From NCBI GenBank assembly GCA_963804385.1, contig CAWDQD010000013.1:43735-107734 (forward strand): a stretch of DNA of 64,000 nucleotides, written 5' to 3'. The DNA is from an uncultured Candidatus Micrarchaeota archaeon (GTDB taxonomy: Archaea; Micrarchaeota; Micrarchaeia; Anstonellales; Bilamarchaeaceae). Made by a program: the position numbers and the translations under genes. Under the pieces are notes generated by a model. That model ran no database searches. It saw nothing but the letters and a program-made list of their open reading frames with translations, and was not told the origin of the DNA. Numbering within the stretch: position 1 is the stretch's first letter; each line of letters starts with the position of its first letter. Of this stretch, positions 22,408 to 51,093 are shown in pieces.

Positions 22408-22501
22408 GCCTCAGTAGTGTAGAGCACTTTCCAGTGCGCACGATGGTTCAGCATACGAGACTGTCACTCTCGCGACCCGGGTTCGAATCCCGGCTGAGGC
22501 G
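22408..22501 (+). tRNA. tRNA-Asp (anticodon GUC) with a ~20-nt insertion (putative non-canonical intron) in the D-loop
   Basis: Acceptor GCCTCAG/CTGAGGC with discriminator G. D stem GTGT/GCAT. Anticodon arm CGAGA-CTGTCAC-TCTCG. T arm CCGGG-TTCGAAT-CCCGG. The D-loop is 30 nt (22421-22450) instead of about 8-11 nt and contains the hairpin GCAC-tttcca-GTGC. TATA gtttataata lies about 30 nt upstream. Confidence 0.65.
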
Positions 22502-22572
22502 CTTTTTGTTTTTCCGCGCGATGACTACAAAACAGACGCGACTTTTATAAAGAATAGGCGTATGCTATCATA

Positions 22573-23589: not shown

Positions 23590-25815
23590 TCAAATCTCCA
23601 CTTTCATATACTCGTCTTTCTCCCATCTTATTTTCTTTATAGCGTCCAAAACGCCAGGGTCCCACGAAACCCAAGTGAGCGGCAATCCGTTCTTCTCGGC
23701 CCGCTCAGCATGGTCAAGTATGACACGCCTAATCGCAGTTGTCTGAATCTCGTAACCTCGCCTTCCGAGGTTGTTCCATAGATAATTTTTCTTCGTGTTA
23801 ATAGGATAGGCTATAAGGTCTACGGAGTCGACCATCTTTTTGCCTGCTCCATTCGGTTCTGGAACGACCACTAGCATGTATTTTTTCTGGAGATCCTTTA
23901 TAGTCTGGACCAGCATGCGCTCATGCAGTGTCGAACCGATCCGGCTCCGGTCCGTATCAAGGATCCTGTCGGCATCGACCCATTTGAGCCCCTTGTCGGT
24001 CAGAGCGTACTTGCTATCGTTCTCGACTGCAAGCCCCAGCCCGAGCAGATTATTGAGTATCCCGGGAGAGCTTGGTACCCCATATACCGTCGCCTTGTTT
24101 TTCACTATCCCGAATCCCAGAATAAGTTTGACCAAGTCAGCCCTGGGTTTCCCAGGATTATAATATATCGCCAAAAGCCCCAGGTACATCGGAGGCGTGG
24201 GCATATCTCTAGGCGGAGACGAAGGCAGCTCCGAAATCCCCCCAGGCACACTCGTTCCGCCCATATCTATCGGCAATTCAGGCTCTTTTATCTCGGATGG
24301 GAAGAAAGCGGTCTCGTGCAATCGACCCAGTTCGGAATCGTCGAGCGGTTTTATCTTGACGTAATCCCCGAAGTGCTGGCCTTTGGCTGCACGGACCTGG
24401 TCGAACACGAACGCTTCGCCAATCCCAGCGGTCCCCAGATAAGCGCTCTCCAGGTCCTTGAACCCGAATATCCTCTTGGCGCTGTCCAGGAAATCGGCGT
24501 CCTTGTAGCTGTGGACGACGCGGATAGCGCTGGAGTTGGTGAACGATTTGGGCAGATCCTCGAGCTGCTGCGTGCTGACGATCATGCCGAAGCCGTATTT
24601 CCTTCCCAACCGCACGATGCGGCTGGGCAGAGGCTCGTAGACCTGGATGTCGTCCCTCTGGTTCTGCAATACGGCCCATGCGTCATCGAAAACAACGAGC
24701 AGCCTCATCTTCTCCGGCTGGCCCTCGAAGTATTCGACTATCCTCTGGAATATGGAGTAGGAGACGGTGGATTTCTCGATCTGGTTCAATCCGGCCAAAC
24801 TGACCACATTGTTCCGGGTGAGCATCCCGTCCCAGAACTCCTCCGGTTCGGTCCCGAAAACCCGCTGCACCGTGCGTAGCCTTTGGTCTATCCAGTTGGC
24901 GTACTGCCGCTGCTCCGGGCTCAGTTTCCTGTCCTTGGATCTGCGGTCCACGTCCTGCCAGATGTCGAGCAAAGAGGGCGTCTGGTTCTTCTGATAGTAG
25001 GATATAGCGATCGTGCGCAGCATGTTGGACTGCAATGGCGTGAGCTTAGCGCCGAACTGGAATAATTCGGATATGCTTGAGACCCTGTCAGCGACAGAAG
25101 CGCCGCGAAGCAGAAACGGATTTATCTTGAAGTGCTTGCCTGCCTTCCAGACGGTCGCGTTTATCTTGGAACCCCACTCTTCGCTCTCTCCGTTCCAGTC
25201 CAATATGAGGAATTTTGTCCCATACGCCAGGGCCGAGCGTATCAGGAACGCACGCAACGTCGTGGTCTTCCCTGAGCCTGAGCCGCCTAATATTATAGCA
25301 TGGGGATTCGGCTCGGCTAGGTAATCCAGGACGAATTCCCGGGTCTCGCCGACCATGAGGGGCTTGTTATAACCGTCCTGCCGCTCGCCTGATAGCGTAT
25401 ATTCGCGGGTGTCTAGATAGTGCTTGAACGCCGTGCCCAGATGTATGCCAGCCGCCTTGTCCTTCTTTGTCTTCAGGCCGCTGTAGTAGTGGAACCTGAA
25501 TATCAGAAGGGATAGCGCTACGACGACGCAGGCCAGGAAGAGGAAGAGCGCGAGGCTCGCCGCGATGCCGAATAAGAGGGAGAAGATGAAATACGGGATG
25601 GCGGCCAGACCCGCGAAGATGATGAGTATTAGTAAAGTATAGATGAGATGCATCCTGAACTGCGGGGTGGTATGCCATCGCGCGGTCTCGGGCTTGACCC
25701 GGCCATGCAGGTCATTGATGGCGTCGCTGGCATCCATCTTCACTTCGACTGCCATGCGTGATAGCTTCTTCTGGGCCTTCGGCTTGACAACAGGGATATC
25801 GTTCTTATCCGCCAT
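23590..25815 (-). CDS. Membrane-anchored HerA/VirB4/FtsK-superfamily ATPase (DUF87-like) with a C-terminal wHTH and a PD-(D/E)xK-like module
   Basis: N-terminal hydrophobic hairpin(s) LIYTLLILIIFAGLAAIPYFIF...LFLFLACVVVALSLLIF. Walker A ILGGSGSGKTTT, Walker B LLVVFDDAW, and the HerA-type LGRKYGFGMIVSTQQLEDLP. The C-terminal ~150 aa contains LHERMLV...VDLIAYP...GYEIQTT, an E..D..ExQ nuclease-like pattern. Confidence 0.8.
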   Translation of the reverse strand: MADKNDIPVVKPKAQKKLSRMAVEVKMDASDAINDLHGRVKPETARWHTTPQFRMHLIYTLLILIIFAGLAAIPYFIFSLLFGIAASLALFLFLACVVVALSLLIFRFHYYSGLKTKKDKAAGIHLGTAFKHYLDTREYTLSGERQDGYNKPLMVGETREFVLDYLAEPNPHAIILGGSGSGKTTTLRAFLIRSALAYGTKFLILDWNGESEEWGSKINATVWKAGKHFKINPFLLRGASVADRVSSISELFQFGAKLTPLQSNMLRTIAISYYQKNQTPSLLDIWQDVDRRSKDRKLSPEQRQYANWIDQRLRTVQRVFGTEPEEFWDGMLTRNNVVSLAGLNQIEKSTVSYSIFQRIVEYFEGQPEKMRLLVVFDDAWAVLQNQRDDIQVYEPLPSRIVRLGRKYGFGMIVSTQQLEDLPKSFTNSSAIRVVHSYKDADFLDSAKRIFGFKDLESAYLGTAGIGEAFVFDQVRAAKGQHFGDYVKIKPLDDSELGRLHETAFFPSEIKEPELPIDMGGTSVPGGISELPSSPPRDMPTPPMYLGLLAIYYNPGKPRADLVKLILGFGIVKNKATVYGVPSSPGILNNLLGLGLAVENDSKYALTDKGLKWVDADRILDTDRSRIGSTLHERMLVQTIKDLQKKYMLVVVPEPNGAGKKMVDSVDLIAYPINTKKNYLWNNLGRRGYEIQTTAIRRVILDHAERAEKNGLPLTWVSWDPGVLDAIKKIRWEKDEYMKVEI

Positions 25816-25848: not shown

Positions 25849-26847
25849 TTAAGGGTTCGTTTTCTTGAAATAATCGAGCGGGATTATGGCGATGGCCGAG
25901 TTGACCCAGCCGTGGAGGTAGTCGGATATCGGCTGCGAGGTTATGTCTCCGTTCCCGATGTGCGATTGGGATATGGTCGGTTTCCCGTTTATGTTACCGG
26001 AATAGACGGAGGTGTGCCCCACGATGAACGGGGTTCCCAAAGGCCGGTCCTTGTCCTTCAGCTTCGATGTGTCGATCACTTGGTTGTTGGCATCCAGCCA
26101 GATCACCTTGTCGTGCTCCTTGGCCTCCCATTCCCGCGATTCCTTCATGTTTCCGAAATGCTTCTCATCTAGGAAAATGACCACGTCCCCTTCCCTGGCC
26201 TCTTTCGCGAATTCATCCACCCCGTCCTTGTAGGAGACGCCCCTGAAGGCGTTCGGCTTGGCGAGTTTCGGCTTAAGCTCGAGGGTCGCTTTCCCTGCGG
26301 CCAGCGCTTCGTTGAGCTCGACGCCCGTGTCGGGATTGACCACCCGCACGTCGTTATTGGTAGTAATCGACCGGTTCACGAACTGCAGGCAGTCCTGCGG
26401 ATTCCCCAGGGTGACCGGACCGGTCAGCTCGGCGTTGTTCTCGGCTGCGACCAGTCTTATCACGCGGACCGCTTCGCTTAGCCACCCCTTATCCTGCTCG
26501 GTCGCCTTGTTGGCATCCAACCGGGCGACCATATCCGGAGGGACGACGACGGGATATGCGATCTGGGCGGTATTCCCGTTCTGCGTCTGCTCGGCCACCA
26601 GGAAATACTTGCCTGCCTTCCGGTCTTTTTCCTCCTGCGGACCAAGGAGGTCCAGCTGCGCGCCTATGAACTCCCTTTTCTGTATGGGGACGCCGTCCAC
26701 GTTCGCGAGCGGCTTGGCTGAATTGTGGTTGAGGACCAGCTTGATGTTCCGGTCTGTCTGCATCCTCGCTCCATCGTTCGCAGGCTCGTGCGCGATGGGA
26801 TATTTCGGAGCTTTCTGCGCTTCCACGACGGGAACGGGTGCTGGCAT
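25849..26847 (-). CDS. Hypothetical protein (332 aa), middle gene of the operon
   Basis: Long ORF with 33-nt gaps to both neighbours on the same strand. I recognised no confident motif. Confidence 0.6.
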   Translation of the reverse strand: MPAPVPVVEAQKAPKYPIAHEPANDGARMQTDRNIKLVLNHNSAKPLANVDGVPIQKREFIGAQLDLLGPQEEKDRKAGKYFLVAEQTQNGNTAQIAYPVVVPPDMVARLDANKATEQDKGWLSEAVRVIRLVAAENNAELTGPVTLGNPQDCLQFVNRSITTNNDVRVVNPDTGVELNEALAAGKATLELKPKLAKPNAFRGVSYKDGVDEFAKEAREGDVVIFLDEKHFGNMKESREWEAKEHDKVIWLDANNQVIDTSKLKDKDRPLGTPFIVGHTSVYSGNINGKPTISQSHIGNGDITSQPISDYLHGWVNSAIAIIPLDYFKKTNP

Positions 26848-26879: not shown

Positions 26880-28637
26880 TCATTGGCAGGCGCCGCTGTT
26901 CGTCCCGGTCTCCCCGGGCGGGCAGCAGAATCCGTTCCCGTTCGAATCCGCCCACGCCCCGTCGCCCGGAGCGCAGCAGAAGCCCTTCCCGTTGTTGTCC
27001 ACGTAGTTCCCGTATCCCGAATCGCAGCAGTAGCTGTCCCCGTTGCCGTCCACGTGGCCTGTCCCGCCGGAGCTGCACGAGAAGCATGCGCCGGAATCAG
27101 AATTGCAAAACGGATAGGCAGACGTGCAGCCGCAGTAAGAGCATTTGGGCACTAGCTCACCTGAGGAGCAGTATCCTCCGGCCAATGAGGAGGAGCAGGA
27201 GCCGTACGGAGTGCCGTCCTGGCAGGCGAGTAACGGTACGAACTCGCTCCAGTTACTGTAAGCTGGCAGGCTCTGCAATTCGTTTATGTCTATCGCGAAG
27301 CCGATGCCCGGCGCGCTCCCGGTATAGCCCAGGGTGTTTATGCCTATCAATGACCCGTCGCTGGTGAGGAACAACCCGCCGCCGCTGTTGCCGTGGTTTA
27401 TCGCGGCATCCGTCTGGATGTATTTGGTCCCGCTATTTTGCACGAAATTCGAGATTATGCCGTTGGTGACCGTGTTCTGGAGGCCCAGCGGAGAGCCTAT
27501 CGCGACCACGGTCGCGCCTTGCGATTCGTTCTCGTTTCTTATCATCGCCGGTTCCCCGTAGGTCCCATGCACGTATATGACGGCCAGGTCTATGCCGTAG
27601 GGTGCCACACGGATGTCCGATGCGGTGGCGGTCTTCTGGTCCTCGGTCTCGATCAGCACGTTGGCGATCCCGGACGACTCGTTCACCACATGGTCATTCG
27701 TGAGTATCACCGTCTGGCCGTTCCCCTGGCTGAGGATCACGCCCGAGCCGCTGTCCACGCCGGGCACCTCCACGTAGACCACGCTCTTCTGGGCCGCGGA
27801 GATTATCTGCTCGGTCTGCTGCTCCTGGGTTATGCATGAATCGTTGCTGCAGATCAGCCCCTGGCCGCAGCCGCAGTCCGCGCAGTCGAATACGAGTTTT
27901 TCCTGCTCATCGCAGAGATAGCTCACCTGCGAGCAATGCCCGACCACCGTGCCATCGGAGCACGAGCGGGGGACCACGCTTATCGGAGCGGCCGCATCAG
28001 ACGGGAGATAGAAGCCGTCGCCTTCGAATCTCGCCGGTATGGATTGCATGCCGGTCTCGTTGAAGGACACGCTGGTCTGCGCGATGCCCGATGCATCCGT
28101 CCGGGCGCCGTATGACCCGATCAAGACGGTCTCGTTGGATAGCGGGACGCCTCTCGAATCCGCGAGCGTGGCGTTTATCAGCACTCCGGTCGCGTCCTGG
28201 GCCTGCGCAGGGACGGAAAGCCGTATGGATGTCGGTATGTATACAGGGACCGACGCGCTCCCGGAATCATTCTTGTGGAATATGTCGCCGGAATAGACGA
28301 TTGAGAGGTCGATCATCTTCCCGCACCAATCGGGTTTTACCTCCTGCGTGGAGGAGAAGCGGCCGTTCTGGTCTGTGTTGAGTTTCTCCAGCAGGACTCC
28401 GTCCACATACGTCGATGTCGGCCCGGATACGCCTCGGCCGTCGCTGCCGGTCAACTGCACGGAATATGAGAGCGAGCCGCCGCAGGTAGCGTTCGCATTC
28501 GCTGAAAGCTGGACAGGGGATTGGAAGACGCCCAAGAAAGCGAGCAAAACGATCAATGCGAGGATTAGGATGACGACTGCGGATATGCCGACTATCCCTT
28601 CAGCCAATAGGACGAAAATTTGCGGCTTCTTAGGCAT
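26880..28637 (-). CDS. Membrane-anchored extracellular trypsin-like (S1, HtrA/DegP-type core) serine protease with Cys-rich modules
   Basis: Start set to MPKKPQIF, about 27 nt from the TATA cattataaac (an alternative ATG is at 28649). It has one N-terminal TM segment. The catalytic triad context is LTNDHVV, IDLAVIYV and AINHGNSGGGLF. Two Cys-rich segments are present, including a C-terminal CSYCGC...CFSCSSGG...FCCAPG...FCCPPG. Confidence 0.8.
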   Translation of the reverse strand: MPKKPQIFVLLAEGIVGISAVVILILALIVLLAFLGVFQSPVQLSANANATCGGSLSYSVQLTGSDGRGVSGPTSTYVDGVLLEKLNTDQNGRFSSTQEVKPDWCGKMIDLSIVYSGDIFHKNDSGSASVPVYIPTSIRLSVPAQAQDATGVLINATLADSRGVPLSNETVLIGSYGARTDASGIAQTSVSFNETGMQSIPARFEGDGFYLPSDAAAPISVVPRSCSDGTVVGHCSQVSYLCDEQEKLVFDCADCGCGQGLICSNDSCITQEQQTEQIISAAQKSVVYVEVPGVDSGSGVILSQGNGQTVILTNDHVVNESSGIANVLIETEDQKTATASDIRVAPYGIDLAVIYVHGTYGEPAMIRNENESQGATVVAIGSPLGLQNTVTNGIISNFVQNSGTKYIQTDAAINHGNSGGGLFLTSDGSLIGINTLGYTGSAPGIGFAIDINELQSLPAYSNWSEFVPLLACQDGTPYGSCSSSLAGGYCSSGELVPKCSYCGCTSAYPFCNSDSGACFSCSSGGTGHVDGNGDSYCCDSGYGNYVDNNGKGFCCAPGDGAWADSNGNGFCCPPGETGTNSGACQ

Positions 28638-28711
28638 GAGGATACGCATGCTTTGAAGTTTATAATGCTTGAGAAAAGGATTAAAGAAAACTATATCGGA
28701 TATTGGTCTGT

Positions 28712-29548
28712 ATGGCAATTGAAGAGATATTATCATCTCCCATAGTCGAAAATACGCTGGAGGGCGTATTCCATAAGAAGCCGTTCCATATCATCGAGCG
28801 GCCAGGCTCATTCGTCATAATCCTCAAAGAAGAACCAGCGGACAGGGTCACCCGGCTGATCATACTGAAACCTAATGGATATACGGCCAATCACCCGCAG
28901 GAATTGAGCAGCCATCCCGAGGCGAGGGAAGCGACCCTAGAAATCAAAGGAGCGGTCGGCGCTGGTAAAAAAGGGTACAATCTGATAAAAAATTGCGTGG
29001 AATTCGTTTATTATCCGACCAGGCAGGCGGAAACGATATCCTCCTTCCCGTATGCCAAAGCGGACAACGCCCTGCGGCTGGTGAAGAATTCCAGGACGAA
29101 GTTCAAGGTCATAAAATCCAGCGGCTACGGCTTCTATCACAACCTACGCAATCTCACCGATAGGTGGCTGGTGCTGGTACTGAACAAGAAGCTCGACTTG
29201 TCGAAAGAGATAGATTATGGTTTGCTCGACGCTTGCAGCGGTGAAGAAAAGCGCGCTTTGCTGGAGTTCCATGGTTTGGTTACCGAGAAAGGGGATATGA
29301 TATTCAAGGAGAACAGAACGGCAATAGAAAAGATAACCTCGCTTTCTCCGAAGAGGTGTTTGCCGGTCCTGATCACGTTCCTGAATATGCCGGAACTCGG
29401 GAAACACGAGCAATGCACGGTCTTCGCGGTAATCCTCAAGATGGCCAAGCTGGATAAGCGGCTTGCGCTCGGATTGCTCTCCGACGCCCTGGCCAAGAAC
29501 ACCGCGCAACCGTATTATCTGAACGAACTGATCGAAAAGATCTCCTAA
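28712..29548 (+). CDS. Hypothetical protein (278 aa)
   Basis: ORF trimmed to the first ATG (MAIEEIL). It is divergent from the protease operon. No motif recognised. Confidence 0.45.
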   Translation: MAIEEILSSPIVENTLEGVFHKKPFHIIERPGSFVIILKEEPADRVTRLIILKPNGYTANHPQELSSHPEAREATLEIKGAVGAGKKGYNLIKNCVEFVYYPTRQAETISSFPYAKADNALRLVKNSRTKFKVIKSSGYGFYHNLRNLTDRWLVLVLNKKLDLSKEIDYGLLDACSGEEKRALLEFHGLVTEKGDMIFKENRTAIEKITSLSPKRCLPVLITFLNMPELGKHEQCTVFAVILKMAKLDKRLALGLLSDALAKNTAQPYYLNELIEKIS

Positions 29549-29565
29549 GCCGCTGGAGGAGTTTA

Positions 29566-29832
29566 CTATTTCCGTATCCCGATCCATTTCTCATAATCCT
29601 TATGCTTGCCGACAAAATAGAAACGCCGGACTTTTCTATCTTCGAATGATTTGTAGCATATCCTATACTGGCGTCCGAGCTCTTCGACAAAATATGGAAC
29701 GCCATGCTCGAGATGCCTGGTCGGCAACCCCTCCAAGATACGTTTTATCTTCTTCGTGACCCGCAGTTTCATATCATCTGGGAGGTCGCTGAAGTATTCT
29801 TTCCAGCCTTCATCGAATTCAGACGCATACAT
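29566..29832 (-). CDS. RelE/ParE-family type II toxin
   Basis: 88 aa. ...LGRQYRICYKSFEDRKVRRFYFVGKHKDYEKW matches the RelE/ParE C-terminal pattern (YRIxY...hhhhxhGxHxxxY). It lies directly downstream of a small RHH gene. Confidence 0.7.
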   Translation of the reverse strand: MYASEFDEGWKEYFSDLPDDMKLRVTKKIKRILEGLPTRHLEHGVPYFVEELGRQYRICYKSFEDRKVRRFYFVGKHKDYEKWIGIRK

Positions 29833-29837
29833 CTGAT

Positions 29838-30098
29838 CTACTCGAGCATTTTCGCGTATTTCTCGCCGAGCGCTTCCTTCGCTGTCAGGACCTTCCGTTT
29901 CCCTTCTTTGATCTCTTTGTCTATCTGCCGCATTTTCTTGACCGCTAGAGGTTCGCTCAATCTCTTGAGCTGGTGATGCTCATTGTAATCCATGATGGCC
30001 ACGCGGATGGCCTCGGTCTTGTTGGTCGCGATCTTCTTGGCGAGCATCTCGTTGATAACTTCTTCCGGGAAGCCCCCGATCTTCAGCGTTATATTCAT
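29838..30098 (-). CDS. Ribbon-helix-helix (CopG-like) antitoxin
   Basis: Trimmed to MNITLKIGGFPEEVINEMLAKKIATNKTEAIRVAIMDY (RHH-like beta-alpha-alpha). A 5-nt gap separates it from the toxin gene. Confidence 0.65.
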   Translation of the reverse strand: MNITLKIGGFPEEVINEMLAKKIATNKTEAIRVAIMDYNEHHQLKRLSEPLAVKKMRQIDKEIKEGKRKVLTAKEALGEKYAKMLE

Positions 30099-30205
30099 GC
30101 ATTGACACCGCATTTAGTATGTACTCAGTCCTTATTAAATATATTTATTGTGTCAAATAATGTATTTTCGTAAGCTATTTAAACAGTTCCGCGTATAATG
30201 ATAGT

Positions 30206-30508: not shown

Positions 30509-31411
30509 ATGATTATGAGGAACCTCGTCCTGATAATATTGGCTGCTGTATTGGTTTTCGGGTGCGTGAATGCCCCGACGCAATCTACGAACGGAACGCA
30601 GAGCAATGCCGTCATACCTTCATTAGGAGGGCAGACCTGCACCCAATCGCAGACATTCTCCGCTCTGGGCCCGGGCATACTCTCGAAGACCAGCGAACTC
30701 ACTGCGAGCGTCACGTGCGCAGGCGGGCAGAGCATAGTCGTCAGCGTGGACAATAGCCCTATCGACACGGTGCAGGTGCAGACCAACGACACTCAGAACG
30801 TCACGCTCGGGATACCGGCCACGATGGACGGCCAGCACACAGTCACTGTGGAGATCGGCGGCCAGAACGTTTTTTCTGACTCGTGGAACGTCACCCCGCT
30901 GGGATTCCAGAAGGTCGAAGGGTTGGAGACCGACGCCGTATCGTACAGGCAATGGCTCGCCGAGGCCGTGGATGTCGGCAACCAGATAACCGTCGCGCGC
31001 GCGGAAGCGTACCTGAGCACCGAGCAGTCATCGATGCAGCCGAACAGCAGCATGATCATGGAGATAAGGACCGACGACAACGGCAAGCCGGGCGCCGTGG
31101 TCGGCACCGCGAAGGACCCGATGAGCGCAATCACGCAGAGCGACAACTGGGTAGGTTTCGATTTCTCTCCGGCCGTGACTCTCGCGCCGGGCCGCTACTG
31201 GATGGTGGTGAAGGCGCAGCAGGGCCAGACCGGCCTCGTCACCGACATAGTGCAGCTGCATTACGTGACGGTCGACAAGACCGCGGCGGGCAACGATTAC
31301 ACCAGGCAGATGACGCTCAGCGTGGACGAGAACACCGGGATCGCGACCGAAACTTCGTGGCAGCCGCTGGGCTACGACAAGGAATACGACGTGTTCCTGG
31401 AATCCGAATGA
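30509..31411 (+). CDS. Secreted or lipid-anchored hypothetical protein
   Basis: N-terminus MIMRNLVLIILAAVLVFGCVNAPT (signal peptide with a lipobox-like FGC). The remainder is Thr/Ser/Gln-rich and beta-type. Confidence 0.6.
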   Translation: MIMRNLVLIILAAVLVFGCVNAPTQSTNGTQSNAVIPSLGGQTCTQSQTFSALGPGILSKTSELTASVTCAGGQSIVVSVDNSPIDTVQVQTNDTQNVTLGIPATMDGQHTVTVEIGGQNVFSDSWNVTPLGFQKVEGLETDAVSYRQWLAEAVDVGNQITVARAEAYLSTEQSSMQPNSSMIMEIRTDDNGKPGAVVGTAKDPMSAITQSDNWVGFDFSPAVTLAPGRYWMVVKAQQGQTGLVTDIVQLHYVTVDKTAAGNDYTRQMTLSVDENTGIATETSWQPLGYDKEYDVFLESE

Positions 31412-31413: not shown

Positions 31414-32082
31414 CTATCGCCGCAATGAGCCGAACATGTCGCCCAGGACTGCGAACCTCAGCCTCTCGATGGTCTCCCCAAGCTTATGGCCGCAGTCGCT
31501 GCAGAAATCCATGCCCGGGGCTGTGTACCGTGCGACGAAGTCCTGGAAACCCGAGACCCCGTGCCGGATGCACATCTCGCTATGGCATTCCTGCTCGTCC
31601 CGGATGAACAGCTTGCCCGCCTCATGCTTCACTATCGCGATGAGGACGTTGCGCCGCAAGGATCTGATATGCTCCAGCGCGTCGAGCGAGACAGCGGCGT
31701 ATCCCAGGTATATGCCTACTCCGATGAACAGGTCATGGAGGACGCGGCTCGATGAAGGAGTTTCGCTCCGGATCAGCATGCTATGGGGCGTCACCGCGAT
31801 GCCGAAGACGTTCGTGATGCCCATGTCGCTGTTGTATCGGTCGAAAGCGCTGTGCGGTATCTGGTCCACGTGTATGCTTTCCTGCGCGGACGTTATCGAA
31901 CGCAGGGATTTCTTGTACTTCACGCGCCTGAACGCGCCTTTCTCATCTGCGCAGGCGCTCTCCACCATGACGCCCAGCCGCCCGAAAGGCTTGAGCCCGT
32001 CCTCTATCGTGGGGACGAGCTCCTTGGCCATGGCTGGATAGATTATCCTGAGCTTGACCTGCCTGAGGATGGTGGGGTTCAT
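31414..32082 (-). CDS. Archaemetzincin-like (peptidase M54 fold) protein lacking HExxH, paralog 1 of 5
   Basis: VKLRIIYP N-terminus, NVFGIAVTP, and VKHEAGKLFIRDEQECHSEMCIRHG...MDFCSDC. The Cys4 pattern CX4C...CXXC is retained, but HExxHxxGxxH is degenerate (HEAGK). Confidence 0.6.
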   Translation of the reverse strand: MNPTILRQVKLRIIYPAMAKELVPTIEDGLKPFGRLGVMVESACADEKGAFRRVKYKKSLRSITSAQESIHVDQIPHSAFDRYNSDMGITNVFGIAVTPHSMLIRSETPSSSRVLHDLFIGVGIYLGYAAVSLDALEHIRSLRRNVLIAIVKHEAGKLFIRDEQECHSEMCIRHGVSGFQDFVARYTAPGMDFCSDCGHKLGETIERLRFAVLGDMFGSLRR

Positions 32083-32107
32083 GCATGAGTAATGTTATGA
32101 ACTTTAT

Positions 32108-32668
32108 TTAAACGTGTGCAGACCCGATACTGTCTTTTATCTTATCCCGGCAGCTCAGGCAGAGGTCCAGGTCCGGCACCACGCATTTGGCGACGAAGTC
32201 GTTGAAATCCGAGACGCCCTGGAGGAGGCATCCGGCAGTGCAATGGGTCGGAATGAACAGCAGGCCAGCCTGTCGCTGCACCATCTTGGCGAGCACTTCC
32301 GGGAATCCATCGGACATCTTATGGTAAGAGACGAACGCGTATTTCCCGTATGCGCTGGAGCAGGAGAAGACCTGCATCTTGCCGGCGTCCGGCCGGAGCA
32401 GGGGATGGATCGTGAGCGCGATGCCGGAGACCGAGCCGAAATCGTCGAAGATGCCGGTCTGGAGCCGGTCGAGCCGTATGCTTTCCACTGCGGAAACCGC
32501 CGAGCGCAGCGGCTTCGAGTATCTGACGCCCCGGAAAGCGCCTTTCTCATCCGCGCAGGAGGTCTCGACCGCGATATCGAATTGCCTTAACGCCTTTAGC
32601 CCGGCTTCTGCCGCCTTCACGTGCTGCGGTGGCATGTAATCCGGGTAAAGAAGACGGATTCTCTTCAT
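32108..32668 (-). CDS. Archaemetzincin-like protein lacking HExxH, paralog 2 of 5
   Basis: MKRIRLLYPDYM, SGIALTIHP, and VQRQAGLLFIPTHCTAGCLLQGVSDFNDFVAKCVVPDLDLCLSC. Confidence 0.6.
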   Translation of the reverse strand: MKRIRLLYPDYMPPQHVKAAEAGLKALRQFDIAVETSCADEKGAFRGVRYSKPLRSAVSAVESIRLDRLQTGIFDDFGSVSGIALTIHPLLRPDAGKMQVFSCSSAYGKYAFVSYHKMSDGFPEVLAKMVQRQAGLLFIPTHCTAGCLLQGVSDFNDFVAKCVVPDLDLCLSCRDKIKDSIGSAHV

Positions 32669-32710
32669 GCATGATTAGTGTTATGAAATCCATATAAATG
32701 TATTTGAAAA

Positions 32711-33298
32711 TCAGTTCATGCCATGGCTGAGGCGCATTATCGTGGATTTTATGGCGGCCGCGCAGTCCCTGCAGAGGTCGATGCCGGGGAACACGACCAG
32801 CTGGAAGAACTCGGAAAAATCGGATGTCTCCTGCATCAGGCATTCGTTGGGGCAGGCCGCGCCCTGGCCTTCGGGCGCCGGTATCAGCAGCTGGCTCGCC
32901 TGGTATCTCACGAGCGCCGTGATGGCCGGGCCAGGATCCGGAAGCCGCATGGGGGCGGCGAGCGAGACCGCGGCGCTGGCCATATAGCCGCCGATCGCTG
33001 ATACCGTCTCGCCATCCGTATCTATCAGGAAATTAGGCGTGAGCGCGATGCCGAAGATATTGGATCCGTCGGAAAAAGCGTCGCGCAGGAGATCCTTGAC
33101 GCGTATGTCGCCATCCGCGTTCACCACGCGCCGGAGCGGATTCGAGAGCCTGACATCAACGAACGCCCTCTCGCTGGCAGGGGCGCTTTCCACCAGCGCC
33201 TTGAACCGATTGAATGGCTCGAGCCCCTCTTCAGCGGCTTTGACATGCTCCCGCGCGAGGGTGCCGGGGTAGATGAGCCTGAGGGTCACGTTCTTCAT
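32711..33298 (-). CDS. Archaemetzincin-like protein lacking HExxH, paralog 3 of 5
   Basis: ORF 32711..33610 trimmed to MKNVTLRLIYPG (ATG at 33298). Contains NIFGIALTP and VRYQASQLLIPAPEGQGAACPNECLMQETSDF...IDLCRDC. Confidence 0.6.
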   Translation of the reverse strand: MKNVTLRLIYPGTLAREHVKAAEEGLEPFNRFKALVESAPASERAFVDVRLSNPLRRVVNADGDIRVKDLLRDAFSDGSNIFGIALTPNFLIDTDGETVSAIGGYMASAAVSLAAPMRLPDPGPAITALVRYQASQLLIPAPEGQGAACPNECLMQETSDFSEFFQLVVFPGIDLCRDCAAAIKSTIMRLSHGMN

Positions 33299-33306
33299 GG
33301 ACACGC

Positions 33307-33933
33307 CTATACCGCTTTTTGTTTCAGGAACTCGGAGGATTGGCGGGAATGTATCAGGCGCCTTATCGTATCGGATATGTCGGCGCCGCACTTTTTGCAC
33401 AGATCGGTGCCCTGCGCCATTATGCGCTCCACGAAATTGTCGAGATTGTGGATATGCTCCATGAGGCAGACGTTGGGGCAGTCCGGATCCGCGCCGGGGT
33501 TTCTCGGGATGAATATGTGGGCCGCTTCGTATCTGACTATCGCACCCAGGGCAGGCATCCGCATCTGCACCGGAAGCCTCATCACACCGTCGAGCGAGAC
33601 CGCCGCGCATTTCAGGTACGCGCCCGCGCTGAGGACGGGGTCGTGGTTATCCGACCGCACAATAGGATGCGCTGTGAGAGCGATGCCAAAGACATTGAGA
33701 TAATCGTCGCAACGCTCTTTCAGCACCGGATCGAGCGGCATCAGGTTGTCGGCGTAGGTTATCTTCCGCAGAAGGACAGCGTGCCTGGCATTCTCGAACG
33801 CGCCGGCTTCGGCGGCCATCGTCTCCACCAGGGCCCCGAATCGCGTGAACTCCTTCAGCCCTGCGCTCGCCGCCTTCACGGTATGAGGTTCCATGGATGG
33901 CGGGTATATCAGGCGGAGAGTCACGTTCTTCAT
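33307..33933 (-). CDS. Archaemetzincin-like protein lacking HExxH, paralog 4 of 5
   Basis: MKNVTLRLIYPPS, NVFGIALTAHP, and VRYEAAHIFIPRNPGADPDCPNVCLMEHIHNL...TDLCKKC. Confidence 0.6.
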   Translation of the reverse strand: MKNVTLRLIYPPSMEPHTVKAASAGLKEFTRFGALVETMAAEAGAFENARHAVLLRKITYADNLMPLDPVLKERCDDYLNVFGIALTAHPIVRSDNHDPVLSAGAYLKCAAVSLDGVMRLPVQMRMPALGAIVRYEAAHIFIPRNPGADPDCPNVCLMEHIHNLDNFVERIMAQGTDLCKKCGADISDTIRRLIHSRQSSEFLKQKAV

Positions 33934-33975
33934 GCTGATACAGTGTTAGGTAATATCTATAAATGTACTTGAAAC

Positions 33976-34563
33976 TCAGTTGCCCAGCCGGCTAACAGTC
34001 CATTGCACGGCGGTGACGCAGTCCTCGCAGAGCTCCGAGCCGCGGGCCATGACCCGGTCCACGAAATCCGCGAATTCATGGGTGCATCGCATCAGGCAAT
34101 CGTTGCGGCAGTCTGGGGGTCCCTCGCTCGGGATGAGCAGCTTGCTCGCGTTGTATTTGACCATGGCGCTGATGATTGGCCCCGGATCCTGGAGCAGCAA
34201 TGGGTTGCCGAGCGATACTACGGCTCCGGTCATATAGCCGCCGAGGGCCGAGATGCTCTCGCGGCGATCCGTCCCGGGTATGATGAGATACGGCGTGAGA
34301 ACGATGCCGAAGACATTATGCGAGATGTCGACCGGGCTGTCGGGGTCTATGCATCTGAGCCGGATGTTGCGTTCCGCCAAGGCCATACTGCGCAGCAGCT
34401 TCGGGTACCTGAGCCGCCTGTATGCGGATTCCTGGATGGCGCATCGGCTCTCGATTTGGACATTGAAGTCCTTGAACGGCTCCAGCCCGGCCCTCGCGGC
34501 CAAGAGATGCTGCTGAGGAAGGGAGCGCGGGTAGATGAGGCGGAGGGTTACGTTATCCATCAA
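33976..34563 (-). CDS. Archaemetzincin-like protein lacking HExxH, paralog 5 of 5
   Basis: MMDNVTLRLIYPRS, NVFGIVLTP, and VKYNASKLLIPSEGPPDCRNDCLMRCTHEF...SELCEDC. Confidence 0.6.
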   Translation of the reverse strand: MMDNVTLRLIYPRSLPQQHLLAARAGLEPFKDFNVQIESRCAIQESAYRRLRYPKLLRSMALAERNIRLRCIDPDSPVDISHNVFGIVLTPYLIIPGTDRRESISALGGYMTGAVVSLGNPLLLQDPGPIISAMVKYNASKLLIPSEGPPDCRNDCLMRCTHEFADFVDRVMARGSELCEDCVTAVQWTVSRLGN

Positions 34564-34625
34564 ACAATCAGTGATGCGGAATCATTAAAATGAAATAGGA
34601 AAAAAAGGGGAAAAACCGGAAAGAA

Positions 34626-34835
34626 TTATTTCTTCATGTCTTTCATGTCGCAGTTCTTGCACATCGGGCAGAGGCAAAGTCCATGCACGAGGAGCACCAA
34701 ACCGTACAGCACAAGGAGCCAGCCGCCGTACATCGCGCCTGCCGCTCCGAGAATCCCGGCGAATCCGAGCCCTGCGAGGGCCACTACGATTCCGCTGATT
34801 ATATTGCATGTTCCGCACGGTCCACAACAACCCAT
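34626..34835 (-). CDS. Cys-rich small membrane protein (69 aa)
   Basis: MGCCGPCGTCN, then two hydrophobic helices, then HGLCLCPMCKNCDMKDMKK. Confidence 0.45.
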   Translation of the reverse strand: MGCCGPCGTCNIISGIVVALAGLGFAGILGAAGAMYGGWLLVLYGLVLLVHGLCLCPMCKNCDMKDMKK

Positions 34836-34906: not shown

Positions 34907-35323
34907 CTATGGGGCGGAGATTTTGCGGGCTATCGATTTAAGATTCTCGAATTTGAGGTGCATGTCGCCTTCTATCTCGCTGAGCGTCTGCTCGAGGGTG
35001 CGCCCGCGCAGGTAGTACATGCGGCCGTCCTTGGCGACAAGGCCGGAACGCTGGAATAAATTGAGATGGTATATCACGGCGGCCTGGCTCACTTCGGAAA
35101 GCGCCATTATGTCACGAGATGAGATGCCGGTGCCTTTTATGCTCGCCCGGACGAGCGCACGGAAAACGAAACGGCCGACGTCGTCGCGCTCGTCGCCGAG
35201 GCCCAGGCACTGGTATATATAATCTATCTCGCTATCCTGGTTCTCCTCGTCCGCAGGCACGGAGATGTACCGGATGACGATCTGACGATAATAGCGCCTT
35301 TGCATATGTTTATACTTCCGCAT
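34907..35323 (-). CDS. Winged-helix (ArsR/TrmB-like) transcriptional regulator, divergent from grpE
   Basis: ISSRDIMALSEVSQAAVIYHLNLFQRSGLVAKDGRMYYL (HTH plus wing). It shares an AT-rich intergenic region with several TATA-like boxes with grpE. Confidence 0.6.
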   Translation of the reverse strand: MRKYKHMQRRYYRQIVIRYISVPADEENQDSEIDYIYQCLGLGDERDDVGRFVFRALVRASIKGTGISSRDIMALSEVSQAAVIYHLNLFQRSGLVAKDGRMYYLRGRTLEQTLSEIEGDMHLKFENLKSIARKISAP

Positions 35324-36058: not shown

Positions 36059-37951
36059 ATGGGAAAAATCATAGGAGTGGATCTGGGTACATCTAACAGC
36101 GCAGCGGCGTTCCTTGAGGGAGGGCGACCGAAGATAGTCCCGAGCACTGAAGGGATAACGCAATACGGGAAGGCGTTCCCGAGCTACGTCGCGCTCACAA
36201 GGGACGGGCAGAGGATAATAGGCGAGCCGGCAAGGCGCCAGGCTGTCGCGAATCCGGAAGGCACGGTCACCGCGTTCAAGCGCAAGATGGGGACGGACTA
36301 CAAATACAAGATATTCGGCAAGGAGTACCGGCCGCAGGAGCTCTCCGCTTTCCTTCTCCAGAAGATAAAGAAGGACTCCGAGGAATTCCTGGGCGAGACT
36401 GTCGACAAGGCGGTCATCACCGTGCCCGCTTATTTCAACGACAACCAGAGGCAGGCGACCAAGGACGCGGGAGAGATCGCGGGCTTGGAAGTGGTTAGGC
36501 TCGTCAACGAGCCGACCGCCGCATGCCTTGCTTATGGACTAGATAAGGCCGGAAAGGACATGAAGATCCTGGTCTTCGATCTCGGCGGAGGAACGCTAGA
36601 TGTCACGATAATGGATTTCGGGGGCGGAGTCTTCGAAGTGAAATCCACCAACGGAGACACGCAGCTCGGCGGGACGGACATGGATAGGATAATCTCCGAG
36701 TACCTGGCCGACCAGTTCCGCAAGGAGAGCGGCGTGGATGTCAACAAGGACAAGCAAGCGCAGCAGAGGATACTCGAAGCGGCTGAGAAGGCCAAGATCG
36801 AGCTTTCAACCACTATAGAGAGCGAAGTGAATCTTCCTTTCCTAGCTTCCGTCGACAACCAGCCCAAGCATTTCGTGCACAAATTGACCCGCGCGAAGCT
36901 CGAGGACCTGGTACGCCCGATAATCGAGAAATGCCGCGCACCGGTCGAGAACGCGCTGCGCGATGCCAAGCTCTCTCCGGCCCAGATAGACAGGATAATC
37001 ATGGTCGGCGGGCCCACGCGCATGCCGATAGTGCAGAAATTCGTCGAGGATACATTGGGCAAGAAGGTGGAGAGAGGCATAGACCCCATGGAATGCGTCG
37101 CGATGGGCGCCGCGGTGCAGGCTGGAGTACTTTCCGGCGAAGTGAAGGACATCCTGCTGCTCGATGTCACGCCCCTATCGCTCGGTCTCGAGACCATGGG
37201 CGGAGTGATGACGAAATTGATCGACAGGAACACCACCATCCCGACCAAAAAATCGCAGATATTCTCGACCGCATCGGACATGCAGACCGCGGTGGACATA
37301 AACATACTGCAAGGCGAGCGTCCGATGGCCAGGGACAATGTCGCATTGGGGAAGTTCACCCTCACAGGGATACCGCCCGCGCCGCGCGGAGTCCCGCAGG
37401 TGGAAGTCACTTTCGACATAGACGCGAACGGCATACTCCATGTCGGGGCGAAAGACAAGGCAACGAACAAGGAGCAGAGCATGAGGGTTACCGCGCCGCT
37501 GAAGATGAAGGACGACGAGATAAAGGCGAAGATGGCGGATGCCGAACGCTATTCCGCGCAGGACAAGGAGGCCCTCGAGCTCGCGAACGCGAAGAACGAG
37601 GCCGAGTCCATGATCTACTTGACCAAGAAGACGGTGGACGATTTCAAGGACAAGCTCTCGAAGGAGCAGTTCGACAAGGTGAGCGCGGCTCAGAAGAAAC
37701 TCGAGGACGTGATGAGCTCGAACGACGCCGGGAAGATACGGGCCGAGTCCGATTCCCTGAAGAAAGTGATAGAGGAGATCGGCGGCTCGATGTACCAGCA
37801 GCCAGGACCTAATATGGGCGGCGGACCGGGAGATACCGGAGAACAAAACCAGAGTGGCGAGGATTCAGGACACGGTTCCGAGCATCCGAAGAAAAAGAAG
37901 AAGAAAGACGATAATGTCGTCGAAGGCGACTACGAGAAGGTTGACAAGTGA
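36059..37951 (+). CDS. dnaK: Hsp70 chaperone DnaK
   Basis: [18 protein letters not shown] and the full-length Hsp70 sequence. A GAGGTG Shine-Dalgarno-like element lies 5-6 nt upstream. Confidence 0.95.
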
Positions 37952-38250
37952 AAAACTACAGGAAGGTGCTCGGAGTCTCCCAAGACGCGGGGGAAGCGGA
38001 GATAAAGCGGGCCTATCGCAGGCTCGCCCTCCAGTTCCACCCGGACCGGAACAAGGACCCGGGAGCCGAAGCGAGGTTCAAGGAGATAAACGAGGCCTAC
38101 GCCATCCTTAGCGGGAAGCAGAGCGAGCCGATCGTCGTTTCCGCGCCTAGAGCGAGGCGTACCGGAAGGGAGATGACCGACTGGGCGAGCGAAGTGATGG
38201 GCATCTGGGAGGACATTAAAGAAGAAAAGCACAATAATATGTATCGCTAG
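37948..38250 (+). CDS. J-domain-only protein (100 aa)
   Basis: GTG start overlapping the dnaK stop. [52 protein letters not shown] has an intact HPD. There is no G/F or zinc-finger region. Confidence 0.7.
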
Positions 38251-38699: not shown

Positions 38700-39806
38700 A
38701 TGGCGAAACGGGATTATTACGAAGTGCTAGGGGTGGACAAGAGCGCCACGGCAGACCAGATCAAGCAGGCGTACCGGAAGCTCGCGCTGCAATACCACCC
38801 GGACCGGAACAAGGATCCATCGGCCACTGAGAAATTCAAGGAGATAAGCGAGGCTTACGCTGTCCTCAGCGACGAGAAGAAGAAGGCGCAGTACGACCAG
38901 TACGGCCATGCCGGATTCGACCAGATGTATTCCCGCGACGACATATTCCGCTCCGCTGACTTCAGCGATTTCCAGGACATGTTCGAGGGCTTCGGGAGCG
39001 ACCCTTTCAATATCTTCGGAGGACGGTCGCCGTTCGGAGGCAGGGGGAGCGGCAGGCGGCAGGACTACGGAGCGGACCTCGCGACGAGAACGGATATCAC
39101 GCTGGAAGAGGCTGCCAAAGGAACGAAGAAAGAGCTCGGTTATCATCACAGCAAGGGATGCCCCAAATGCGACGGGACCGGAAGCGAGCCCGGGAGCCAG
39201 AGGAAGACGTGCCCGGCATGCGGAGGCCGCGGACAGGTGCAGACCGCGCGACGCATGGGGCCCATGCAGTTCTATACCGTGAACACCTGCGCGAAATGCC
39301 GTGGGGAGGGAAACACGATGGAGAAGCCGTGCAAGTCATGCGGAGGCTCGGGCCGCGTGAGCGAATACGAGCACATCAACGTGAACGTCCCGGCAGGCAT
39401 CCAGAGCGGCATGCAGCTGCGGCTGGACGGCCTTGGAGAGTACGGGAGGGACGGGCCCGGCGATCTGTTCGTCACGGTTTACATAATGAAGCACGACCGC
39501 TTCGAGCGCCAGGGGGACGACCTCTGGACCGAAGTCCCGGTCAGTTTCACCAAAGCGGCCTTGGGCGGAGACATAACGGTGAAGACGCTTTTTGACGAGG
39601 ATAAGCTCCACATACCTGCTGGTACCCCATCGCACACGGTCTTCAGATTACGGGGGGAAGGCATGCCCAGGATAGGAAGAGGCGGCAAAGGGGATTTGAT
39701 GGTGCGCGCTATAATAGACGTACCAAAAAAACTGAGCGGGAAGCAGAAGGAATTATTGCACGAATTCGAGAAGGAAGGCGAGAAGAAAGTTTTCGGGGTA
39801 TTCTGA
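38700..39806 (+). CDS. dnaJ: Type I Hsp40 co-chaperone DnaJ
   Basis: J domain with HPD, a G/F region, four CxxCxGxG zinc-finger repeats ([32 protein letters not shown]) and C-terminal domains. Confidence 0.92.
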
Positions 39807-44827: not shown

Positions 44828-44875
44828 CTACTTTAGTCAACTTTTTATAACTTTCTAAACAATATGATATCCATG
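44828..44875 (+). promoter_or_regulatory. Conserved promoter module, copy 1 (CTACTTTAGTCAACTTTTTATAACTTT...ATG)
   Basis: A near-identical ~48-bp element also occurs at 46001, 47188 and 48357. The TATA box TTTTTATAA lies about 25 nt upstream of the ATG. Confidence 0.7.
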
Positions 44876-45997
44876 GGAAGGTCATTATTCTTATTGCCCG
44901 CAGCAGGCAACATTTCATTACGAGCCCAGATTCAGAGGCTGCGTGATGGATTCGGGCATGACAGCCTCAAGGTCGAGGGCCCGTTCGCGGACAAGGACGG
45001 CGCTGTCGCGGAACTCGTCGAGCATGTGCGGGCCAGGGCCAGGGGAGGCGGGATCTCCGAGAGCGACGCTCTCATGTGCACGCTCCTGCCGCAGGATATC
45101 CTGCCCGAGGGCTATCCGAAAGAAGAAGCCTCGATGCTCGAGGTCCCCTTCGTCCTGAAGCATCAACATATGGGCGCGAAGCGCGAATACCCGGAGAGCG
45201 CAGGGGAGATAGCCTCTGTCGACGCTCTCGCGTTCGGCCAAGACGCAGCGAGGCCGGTGACCCCGACGGGTCTGACAGTGCTCGGCGTGTCCGTCCTGAG
45301 GAGGCTCGGGGTGGAATGCTATTACTCGACATACACGTGCTACGTGGACGAAGAATCCTCCGGAAAGGTGGAGTTCGTGATGCCGATTATCGCCGCGCCT
45401 AAAGTCAATGGCTTGCGGATGATATCGATGTGCCCGATCCCGGCGAGCACGCTCTCTTCGAGCCCTCCGCACCTGGAGGTGCTGGATGATGACGCCCTGC
45501 TTTCGGCCATCAAGCTCGAGAACGCGTACCTGCATGCCAAGGCGCTCATGCTGGATATCGCTGGCGGCAGGCCCGGATCCGGCCTTGAGCGCGTTCTGCG
45601 GGCCATGCAGATAGGCCATACGCTACACGAGGGGAAAACGATCTGGGCTGTGCGGGATGCACAGGAGGATGTCGGGAGCGCCAAGGAGATCCTCGGGCCC
45701 GGCACGGATCTGGATAGCCTGAGGGTGAGATACGAGAAGGACGTCGTGCTGACCTTGACCGAACCCCCGCGCCATATCTTGAAAGCCGCTTCGGTGATGC
45801 TTCCGGAAGATATCGCGCAGGGTGTCGCTTCCTTCGTGGAGGCCGAAGACAAGATGGCCGGCCTCTTGGATTTCCTTGATACGGTCTCTTGGCACAACGC
45901 CATACCCGCGTTCAATAGTTATCTGAAATCTACCTCGACCATGAACGAGCATATGCACACCGGATCGGAATGCGAACGCATGGGGACGGGGAATTGA
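44873..45997 (+). CDS. Hypothetical protein, tandem paralog 1 of 4 (YPESAGE / IGHxxH / NEHxHxxxEC family)
   Basis: Start set to MGRSLF by analogy with the other three. Motifs: YPESAGEIAS, LGVSVLRRLGVECYY, MQIGHTLHEG, MNEHMHTGSEC. Confidence 0.7.
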   Translation: MGRSLFLLPAAGNISLRAQIQRLRDGFGHDSLKVEGPFADKDGAVAELVEHVRARARGGGISESDALMCTLLPQDILPEGYPKEEASMLEVPFVLKHQHMGAKREYPESAGEIASVDALAFGQDAARPVTPTGLTVLGVSVLRRLGVECYYSTYTCYVDEESSGKVEFVMPIIAAPKVNGLRMISMCPIPASTLSSSPPHLEVLDDDALLSAIKLENAYLHAKALMLDIAGGRPGSGLERVLRAMQIGHTLHEGKTIWAVRDAQEDVGSAKEILGPGTDLDSLRVRYEKDVVLTLTEPPRHILKAASVMLPEDIAQGVASFVEAEDKMAGLLDFLDTVSWHNAIPAFNSYLKSTSTMNEHMHTGSECERMGTGN

Positions 45998-46000
45998 AAG

Positions 46001-46047
46001 CTACTTTAGTCTACTTTTTATAACTTTCTAGACAATATGATATCATG
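46001..46047 (+). promoter_or_regulatory. Conserved promoter module, copy 2
   Basis: ctactttagtctactttttataactttctagacaatatgatatcATG. Confidence 0.7.
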
Positions 46048-47184: not shown

Positions 47185-47187
47185 CAA

Positions 47188-47234
47188 CTACTTTAGTCAA
47201 CTTTTTATAACTTTGTTATCAATAGGATATCATG
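47188..47234 (+). promoter_or_regulatory. Conserved promoter module, copy 3
   Basis: ctactttagtcaactttttataactttgttatcaataggatatcATG. Confidence 0.7.
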
Positions 47235-48356: not shown

Positions 48357-48403
48357 CTACTTTAGTCAACTTTTTATAACTTTGTAATCAATATAATATC
48401 ATG
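48357..48403 (+). promoter_or_regulatory. Conserved promoter module, copy 4
   Basis: ctactttagtcaactttttataactttgtaatcaatataatatcATG. Confidence 0.7.
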
Positions 48404-51084: not shown

Positions 51085-51093
51085 AGAACGTGG

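Follow-up and report, generated by a model that had tools for sequence, protein, structure and literature searches.

Archaemetzincins (peptidase family M54) are conserved from archaea to humans, and their biological role is essentially unknown. The family is recognised by the motif HEXXHXXGXXHCX4CXMX17CXXC (PMC3427221). Mutagenesis of AMZ-tk reportedly abolishes activity when any of the three histidines is changed, or when the glutamate is changed to glutamine (PMC4681839), and, according to earlier work, the four cysteines (Cys4) form a structural metal site, which AfAmzA requires for its stability and which also matters in CarG (PMC3427221). Inactive or altered homologs are already known, as are pseudoproteases generally. 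CarG of Myxococcus, with the motif HQxxH...HC-x4-C-x-M-x16-C-x2-C, binds two zinc ions and has no protease activity (PMC8156234); it works as an obligatory partner for CarD, a transcription factor whose gene lies directly upstream of carG (PMC8156234, PMC3427221). In human AMZ1, the third zinc ligand is altered to Asn, Ser or Thr (PMC3427221). In the present study, we analysed a stretch of 64,000 nucleotides (nt) from an uncultured Candidatus Micrarchaeota archaeon (contig CAWDQD010000013.1), hereafter the window, in which five co-directional head-to-tail open reading frames (ORFs), g1 to g5, occupy 31414-34560 of the minus strand. These genes encode divergent homologs of archaemetzincins in which the catalytic motif has been lost and the Cys4 site has been retained, and the products are probably cytoplasmic pseudoenzymes in which the metzincin scaffold serves to bind targets and not to cleave them, different paralogs having diversified towards different targets.

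In the ORF listing of the window, the array comprises g1 (31414-32082, 222 amino acids (aa)), g2 (32108-32668, 186 aa), g3 (32711-33298, 195 aa), g4 (33307-33933, 208 aa) and g5 (33976-34560, 194 aa). The start of g3 was placed at an internal ATG of a 299-aa ORF because the full ORF would overlap g4, and the ATG of g5 lies one codon inside a TTG at 34563. The proteins can be aligned over their full length with a pairwise identity of 31-44% and 27 invariant columns, consistent with an earlier note on this DNA, which had described five head-to-tail paralogs of 186-222 aa. The most divergent paralog is g1, which carries a C-terminal extension (..LGDMFGSLRR). At the DNA level, the array appears as five repeat copies with a period of 620-650 nt and an identity of 60-80%; therefore, the duplications are old, with no sign of recent gene conversion.

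The state of the active site was read from an alignment of 97 family sequences, in which the H-E-x-G-H...H columns are invariant in the intact relatives. The segments HEAGKLF, QRQAGLL, RYQASQL, RYEAAHI and KYNASKL, from which the loss of HExxHxxGxxH had been proposed, occupy exactly the HExGH columns of those relatives. At the positions of the first His, the Glu, the second His and the third ligand, the residues are H, E, K and E in g1 (motif at 31612-31626), R, Q, L and H in g2 (32261-32275, the third ligand being kept before the first Cys), Y, Q, Q and A in g3 (32891-32905), Y, E, H and D in g4 (33517-33531) and Y, N, K and D in g5 (34141-34155). Thus, every copy has lost at least one, and up to three, of the three catalytic zinc ligands, no copy keeps both histidines of the motif, as had been claimed, and the general-base Glu survives in g1 and g4 only. 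No catalytic ligand remains in g3, and the whole protein contains 2 His and exactly 4 Cys. An intact motif was also sought elsewhere in the copies: neither HExxH nor HxxEH occurs anywhere in the 17 array copies from three genomes (the window and the two relatives described below), and HExxHxxGxx[HD] is likewise absent from all six reading frames of the window, which therefore holds no canonical amzA.

The Cys4 site reads CHSEMC...FCSDC in g1 (31492-31587), CTAGC...LCLSC in g2 (32150-32242), CPNECLM...LCRDC in g3 (32762-32854), CPNVCLM...LCKKC in g4 (33388-33480) and CRNDCLM...LCEDC in g5 (34018-34110). The four cysteines (C-x3/4-C ... C-x2-C) are invariant in all five window copies and in 17/17 array copies and align with those of AfAmzA; in g1-g5, 3-4 residues separate the first pair and about 20-22 lie between the pairs. 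The signature suggested before, C-x3/4-C-x-M...C-x-x-C, thus stands for the cysteines of all five proteins, but the methionine of the Met-turn is kept (CLM) only in g3, g4 and g5 and is lost in g1 (CIR) and g2 (CLL). From the sequence, the retained Cys4 would correspond to the structural zinc site of AmzA and is predicted to bind zinc, and the loss of ligands predicts that the proteins have no zinc-dependent peptidase activity. Since the ligand columns are changed, the Cys4 site is kept and AMZ-tk mutants are reportedly inactive (PMC4681839), the description of the copies as catalytically dead and structurally intact is borne out.

The relationship to archaemetzincins was established through intermediate sequences and through structure. 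When the five proteins were searched with hmmscan, no match to Pfam Peptidase_M54 (PF07998) or NCBIfam 'archmetzin' (NF033823) was obtained for any copy even at E<=10, and no family in Pfam or NCBIfam and no defence system in PADLOC was matched. A profile of the five proteins returned two entries from all PDB sequences, both of them Archaeoglobus fulgidus archaemetzincin, with an E of 1.5 and with the Cys-rich C-terminus alone aligned. A word-indexed search of 5.8 billion proteins yielded eight clusters, and an exhaustive HMMER search of 1.84 billion representatives with a profile of the clade yielded 112 matches; the top 13 (>140 bits) are the window's own clade, and those from P0014 down (<=117 bits) mostly carry an intact HExGH followed by HC-x4-C-x-M-Q...DFC-x2-C. 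Using hhalign, a profile of the window's clade (A2) was compared with a profile of 50 HExGH-bearing relatives that included no window sequence (A4), and the two matched with a probability of 100% and an E of 7.4e-42 over 201 columns. In turn, A4 matched AfAmzA (E 1.6e-14), MkAmzA (1.7e-13) and 3lmc, an M54 protein from Methanocorpusculum (3.6e-9), in the PDB, and the HExGH, HC, CxM and CxxC elements were all in register in the alignments with AmzA. Among the 97 family members, 63 touched PF07998 at E<=1 (best E 8.4e-9), and the HExGH relatives fall below the cutoffs of the curated models PF07998 and NF033823, as seen in P0016, with 33.9 bits against a cutoff of 145.

The structural comparison led to the same family. 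AlphaFold2 models, built from nine sequences, had a predicted local distance difference test score (pLDDT) of 89.4 and a predicted template modelling score (pTM) of 0.89 for g3, and a pLDDT of 80.9 for g1. In a Foldseek search of the PDB, the best match of the g3 model was 2x7m (MkAmzA; E 1.3e-6, template modelling (TM) scores 0.61/0.65), together with 4axq (AfAmzA; E 2.4e-6, TM 0.60/0.70), and the best match of the g1 model was also 2x7m (E 4.3e-7); other metzincins, namely a snake-venom metalloproteinase, karilysin, MMP-7 and snapalysin, ranked after AmzA. According to these models, g1-g5 retain the metzincin catalytic-domain fold, with the predicted structures of g3 and g1 closest to AmzA. 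Because the chain of profiles and the Foldseek matches agree, we conclude that g1-g5 are homologous to archaemetzincins, with transitive sequence support via A4, and that they come from a divergent M54 branch overlooked by the curated models. The archaemetzincin-like identity put forward in the earlier note is therefore upheld by fold and by transitive profiles, but not by a direct match to the curated families. A viral or mobile origin was also considered and found no support: matches in BFVD were only generic viral MMP-like proteases, and the locus showed neither an integrase nor a repeat boundary.

Compared with the structurally solved AmzA proteins (2x7m for MkAmzA; 3zvs, 4a3w and 4axq for AfAmzA; 3lmc), the array proteins are alike in being single domains of about 160-210 aa with the metzincin fold, a Cys4 site in register and a cytoplasmic location. 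They differ in lacking HExxHxxGxxH, in having about 20 residues between the Cys pairs rather than the published 17, in the longer and variable loop that leads from the active-site helix to the first Cys, and in forming 5-7 tandem copies that no curated hidden Markov model (HMM) matches. The direct relatives are an HExGH family in Micrarchaeota (for example MDO8554404.1 and MBI5222807.1; full-length hmmsearch E 1e-29 to 1e-10), which has the same length, N-terminal half and DFC-x2-C ending, but whose members keep H, E, G, H, H and the four Cys invariant and occur in one or two copies. CarG offers a functional analogy, as an archaemetzincin-type protein that has lost catalysis, has kept the Cys4 cluster for stability and works by protein-protein interaction (PMC3427221, PMC8156234). 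However, CarG has only the Glu to Gln change, keeps its three His and two zinc ions, and is a single gene restricted to myxobacteria, whereas g1-g5 have lost one to three His ligands. Human AMZ1 resembles the array proteins in its altered third ligand, but keeps HExxH, is a reported aminopeptidase and is a larger eukaryotic protein.

In view of CarG, dead copies are less unexpected than had been supposed, and the statement that archaemetzincins are normally single-copy is too strong, as two are present in Thermococcus kodakarensis (PMC4681839) and paired relatives occur in other Micrarchaeota. Among the top-ranked literature matches, no paper joined archaemetzincins with Micrarchaeota or DPANN. 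Several features of the present locus are new: a divergent M54-like family that is specific to Micrarchaeota, unseen by curated models and annotated as 'hypothetical'; the repeated loss of the catalytic motif in that family; and a tandem array of 5-7 copies that is selected, fast-evolving and dead in all copies.

The window's DnaK is 80-87% identical to DnaK of metagenome-assembled genomes of Candidatus Micrarchaeota, Micrarchaeia and Bilamarchaeum, and the closest loci are all from Micrarchaeota. A protein identical to g3 was found on three other metagenomic contigs, and two further genomes, with DnaK 96-97% identical to that of the window, carry the array at the same place, with seven copies in one (L009) and at least six in the other (L007 plus L004, from one sample). 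The same expansion is thus present in related genomes. Orthologs could be recognised for g1 (L009:12497-13171 and L004:586-1257, 57% identity each), g2 (L007:6135-6707, 64%), g3 (49%) and g4 (L009:10001-10597, 48%), and other array copies have no counterpart. Within this clade, the commonest motif state is YExxH..D (g4 and the copies L9_2, L9_4, L7_2 and L7_3), with a near variant, YExxH..N, in L9_3. On a further contig (L001, ENA ERZ25039480 contig_80859, 66.8 kb), the same array is frameshifted at 8700-11900 into the fragments P0003, P0004 and P0008; because the array is intact in the window, in a Logan contig and in other contigs of related samples, these frameshifts are most likely assembly indel errors and not pseudogenisation.

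Outside the window's clade, relatives occur as single or paired copies in unrelated gene contexts, and in one pair a YELGH..H copy (P0017) stands beside an intact HELGH paralog. The taxonomy of the wider family was taken from the five members bearing an NCBI name, all 'hypothetical protein [Candidatus Micrarchaeota archaeon]'; a search of g3 against the genomes of GTDB found no relative. HExxH is absent from about 30 of the 97 family representatives. In a neighbour-joining tree, which is rough and approximate and carries no bootstraps, the window's clade forms one all-dead group, and other dead clades and dead singletons are scattered among intact members; the dead members include the HQxxH state, which is CarG-like. 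Apparently, the catalytic motif has been lost several times independently in this family.

The evolutionary rates indicate that the copies are maintained. The ratio of nonsynonymous to synonymous substitution rates (dN/dS) for orthologs is 0.23-0.46 (NG86) or 0.15-0.18 (YN00) in the closest pairs and below 0.6 in all pairs; dS is near saturation for pairs of the window with a relative, dN/dS between paralogs is unreliable owing to saturated dS in the most diverged pairs, and conclusions were drawn from ortholog pairs only. Despite a paralog identity of 27-49%, each of the 17 copies is an intact ORF (186-224 aa); the dN/dS values and the intact ORFs in three genomes show that the copies do not evolve neutrally. 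Between the genomes, array orthologs share 48-79% protein identity. For the same genomes, the neighbouring genes gave a dN/dS of 0.02-0.06 for DnaK (identity 96-97%), 0.05-0.17 for GrpE (83-88%), 0.07-0.12 for a HerA-like ATPase (84-90%) and 0.10-0.32 for a 300-aa gene next to the array (72-89%), and the dN of the array is 5-15 times that of dnaK. The array is therefore under purifying selection, yet it evolves several-fold faster than the neighbouring genes and with turnover of copy number (5, 7 and at least 6). Conservation is concentrated in the Cys4 site, the helix of the former active site, the strand with AAVS and the core strands (RLIYP and FGIALTP), and variation and indels are concentrated in loops at g3 residues ~71-80, 91-100 and 141-150, of which the loops at ~91-100 and 141-150 would flank the former cleft.

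Herein, we propose that the array proteins act through binding. With their ligands replaced, g1-g5 would be unable to act as conventional metzincin peptidases, and the retained scaffold, together with the former substrate cleft, may provide a surface for binding proteins or peptides, with its own specificity in each paralog. By analogy with CarG and its partner CarD, the products might serve as non-catalytic partners or regulators. Of the two possibilities raised before, pseudoenzymes or enzymes with a different active site, the former is favoured by the loss of ligands, the retention of Cys4 and the selection on the copies, and a remodelled site is a lesser rival. Several points weigh against the binding hypothesis. 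In g4, as in the majority of the sister-genome copies, Y-E-x-x-H...D is retained, with the general base still present alongside His, Asp and Tyr; these three residues could in principle hold a metal, and the subset may have residual or altered catalysis. In addition, 'active' is poorly defined in M54, because standard assays detected no activity even for the canonical MkAmzA and AfAmzA (PMC3427221). Apart from a Cys-rich miniprotein gene beside the array, no conserved partner gene was identified, the idea of a binding partner comes by analogy, and just three close genomes (dS ~0.5-1) have the array next to a helix-turn-helix (HTH) gene and the hsp70 locus. Taken together, the new branch, the repeated motif loss and the amplified dead array suggest a widespread non-proteolytic use of the scaffold, as in CarG in bacteria. 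The family also offers a natural series of variants (intact, YExxH..D and fully degenerate) with which to explore the ligands of the archaemetzincin fold, and candidate lineage-specific factors for the poorly understood DPANN archaea.

Other explanations must be weighed against this hypothesis. The YExxH..D copies (g4, L9_2, L9_4, L7_2 and L7_3) might still be hydrolases, with a metal site of Tyr, His and Asp and the Glu as base, and with g1, g2, g3 and g5 as regulatory or inactive partners. This state is the commonest in the clade and is conserved between orthologs of different genomes, Asp is an accepted third ligand in metzincins (HEXXHXXGXX(H/D); PMC3427221), and P0017 combines YELGH..H with an intact paralog next to it. 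However, the state occurs in only one of the five window copies, and mutation of a single His ligand reportedly abolishes the activity of AMZ-tk (PMC4681839). In g4, moreover, Ala stands in place of the small Gly of HExGH. To our knowledge, no metzincin has Tyr in place of the first His ligand, and we consider surviving hydrolysis in this subset unlikely. In a bolder version, the array would represent diversifying recognition modules derived from a protease, with a different protein or peptide target bound in the former cleft of each paralog, and the YExxH..D subset would have acquired a new Tyr/His/Asp metal chemistry. Fast-evolving, variable in copy number and accompanied in its insertion by a Cys-rich membrane miniprotein, such a family of a DPANN archaeon that depends on a host could be part of a hitherto unrecognised system for sensing or handling proteins of host or stress origin; it is a speculation to which we give little credence. 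The suggestion that the copies are decaying duplicates, pseudogenes or drifting genes with no function of their own, could draw on the fast evolution (dN 5-15 times that of dnaK), the variable copy number and the degenerate active site, but the intact ORFs (17/17) and the ortholog dN/dS below 0.6 led us to reject pseudogenes, and the invariant Cys4 site and core strands and the confident folds obtained by AlphaFold2 from nine sequences make decay of any kind extremely improbable.

A tie to heat shock would be a special case of the binding hypothesis, in which the array proteins assist the HTH regulator as CarG-like cofactors, or serve GrpE-DnaK-DnaJ as clients or co-factors, and are co-regulated with them. 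In 3/3 array-bearing genomes, the array is co-directional with the HTH gene and directly downstream of it, as carG is directly downstream of carD (PMC8156234), and Graef et al. speculated that oxidation of the Cys4-Zn site may regulate archaemetzincins, with Hsp33 as a precedent (PMC3427221). This idea is weakened by the history of the insertion. Across Micrarchaeota, the conserved HTH-grpE-dnaK-dnaJ block occurs without the array, and none of 80 dnaK loci, including those with a DnaK identity of 80-87%, carries a family member within 10 kb, with relatives elsewhere lying in unrelated contexts; a general link of the family to the hsp70 locus was therefore rejected. The shared synteny of the three array-bearing genomes is uninformative because the genomes are so close (dS ~0.5-1). 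In the other Micrarchaeota loci recovered, the 300-aa gene directly abuts the HTH gene, with a gap of ~20-70 nt where both gene ends align. Since those Micrarchaeota lack the array and the miniprotein between the two genes, we conclude that both represent a lineage-specific insertion into a conserved block, and for this reason the adjacency to heat-shock genes says little on function. Thus, the reported position of the array, abutting the Cys-rich miniprotein and the heat-shock locus, is correct as an adjacency, but a functional link does not follow from it, and we regard the heat-shock explanation as quite unlikely.

The spacers of the array suggest how it might be expressed. In transcription order, starting at the miniprotein gene, they measure 65, 42, 8, 42 and 25 nt, and inspection of the sequence found TATA-like A/T boxes ~25-32 nt before the ATG of g5, g4, g2 and g1. 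The T-rich spacer of 65 nt between the miniprotein gene and g5 (34561-34625, minus) holds the A/T box CATTTTAATGA ~30 nt before the ATG. The 42-nt spacer before g4 (33934-33975, minus; repeat family D5) holds ACATTTATA ~30 nt before the ATG, and the 42-nt spacer before g2 (32669-32710, minus) holds an identical box, ACATTTATA; these two spacers are clearly homologous to each other. The 25-nt spacer before g1 (32083-32107, minus) is more loosely related to them, and its A/T box, TTTAAATAAA, overlaps the stop codon of g2. Preceded by just 8 nt, g3 is without a spacer or TATA box of its own. The earlier note gave each gene its own TATA box and a similar short spacer; a TATA-like box is in place for g5, g4, g2 and g1 but not for g3, and the spacers range from 8 to 65 nt. 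Judged by their sequence and position, the boxes may act as promoters. Transcription of the array would take place downstream of the genes for the HTH protein and the miniprotein, in part from TATA-like promoters of its own that give leaderless mRNAs. The N-terminus of g3, MKNVTLRLIYP, is the first beta-strand of the AlphaFold2 model and no signal peptide is present; therefore, the array proteins are expected to be cytoplasmic.

Upstream of the array lies the gene for the Cys-rich miniprotein (34626-34835, minus; 69 aa), which has two hydrophobic helices and the sequence pattern MGCCGPCGTCN...CLCPMCKNC. It is kept in array-bearing relatives (L010:143-340 and L007:4012-4170), and in other Micrarchaeota the 300-aa gene and the HTH gene lie too close together to accommodate it. 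It has no family match and was not found associated with family relatives elsewhere (L091). An extra 352-aa ORF lies between the miniprotein gene and the seven-copy array (L009:7623-8681 / L010:447-1508) and has no counterpart in the window. The HTH protein (34907-35323, minus; 132-138 aa) is encoded divergently from grpE-dnaK-dnaJ, with the array downstream on the same strand, and shows a weak ArsR-type match (Pfam HTH_5, E 0.0038, below the cutoff). Its identity is 94-96% in L009 and L007 and 55-80% in other Micrarchaeota, and its gene always adjoins grpE. Beyond the HTH gene, the order is grpE, dnaK, a J-domain ORF and dnaJ. The J-domain-only ORF (37948-38250, plus; 100 aa) overlaps the stop codon of dnaK and precedes the full-length dnaJ (38700-39806), and its position is conserved across the dnaK loci of Micrarchaeota. 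On the other side, the 300-aa gene (30509-31411, plus) is convergent with g1 at a distance of 2 nt and encodes a predicted secreted or lipoprotein-like protein with an NCBIfam choice-of-anchor R domain (E 1e-6, just under the cutoff).

Further features were observed elsewhere in the window. A block at 26880-30113 looks like a window-specific insertion, since the L009 locus, which is otherwise syntenic, lacks it as far as that locus has been sequenced; the block encodes a trypsin-like peptidase of 618 aa that has an Ig-like domain, and it further contains an ORF of 281 aa and ORFs of 88 and 91 aa in a toxin-antitoxin-like arrangement. The neighbouring HerA/DUF87-type ATPase (23590-25815, minus; 741 aa) has weak CedB/CedD/VirB4-like matches (DNA import or conjugation) and adjoins a conserved 332-aa protein of no assigned function (25849-26847, minus); the pair also occurs in L009, and the ATPase in L004. 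A second tandem array, at 44864-52298 (plus), consists of six consecutive ORFs of 372-492 aa (44864-45997, 46045-47184, 47232-48356, 48401-49519, 49606-51084 and 51168-52298), of which ORFs 2-4 are 38-46% identical to the first and the last two 16-22%; for two of these ORFs, a Pfam search was made and gave no match. A 5S rRNA gene stands alone at 61249-61363 (minus; Rfam, 79.9 bits), with no 16S or 23S rRNA gene detected in the window. The sole tRNA reported by ARAGORN is a tRNA-Asp (22428-22502), and Rfam identified a tRNA spanning 119 nt at 8118-8236 (minus), presumably intron-containing and unreported by ARAGORN; this tRNA and a geranylgeranyl-reductase-like gene fit an archaeal host. Finally, a giant 2501-aa protein of NosD/right-handed beta-helix repeats, probably a surface protein, is encoded at 278-7783 (minus).

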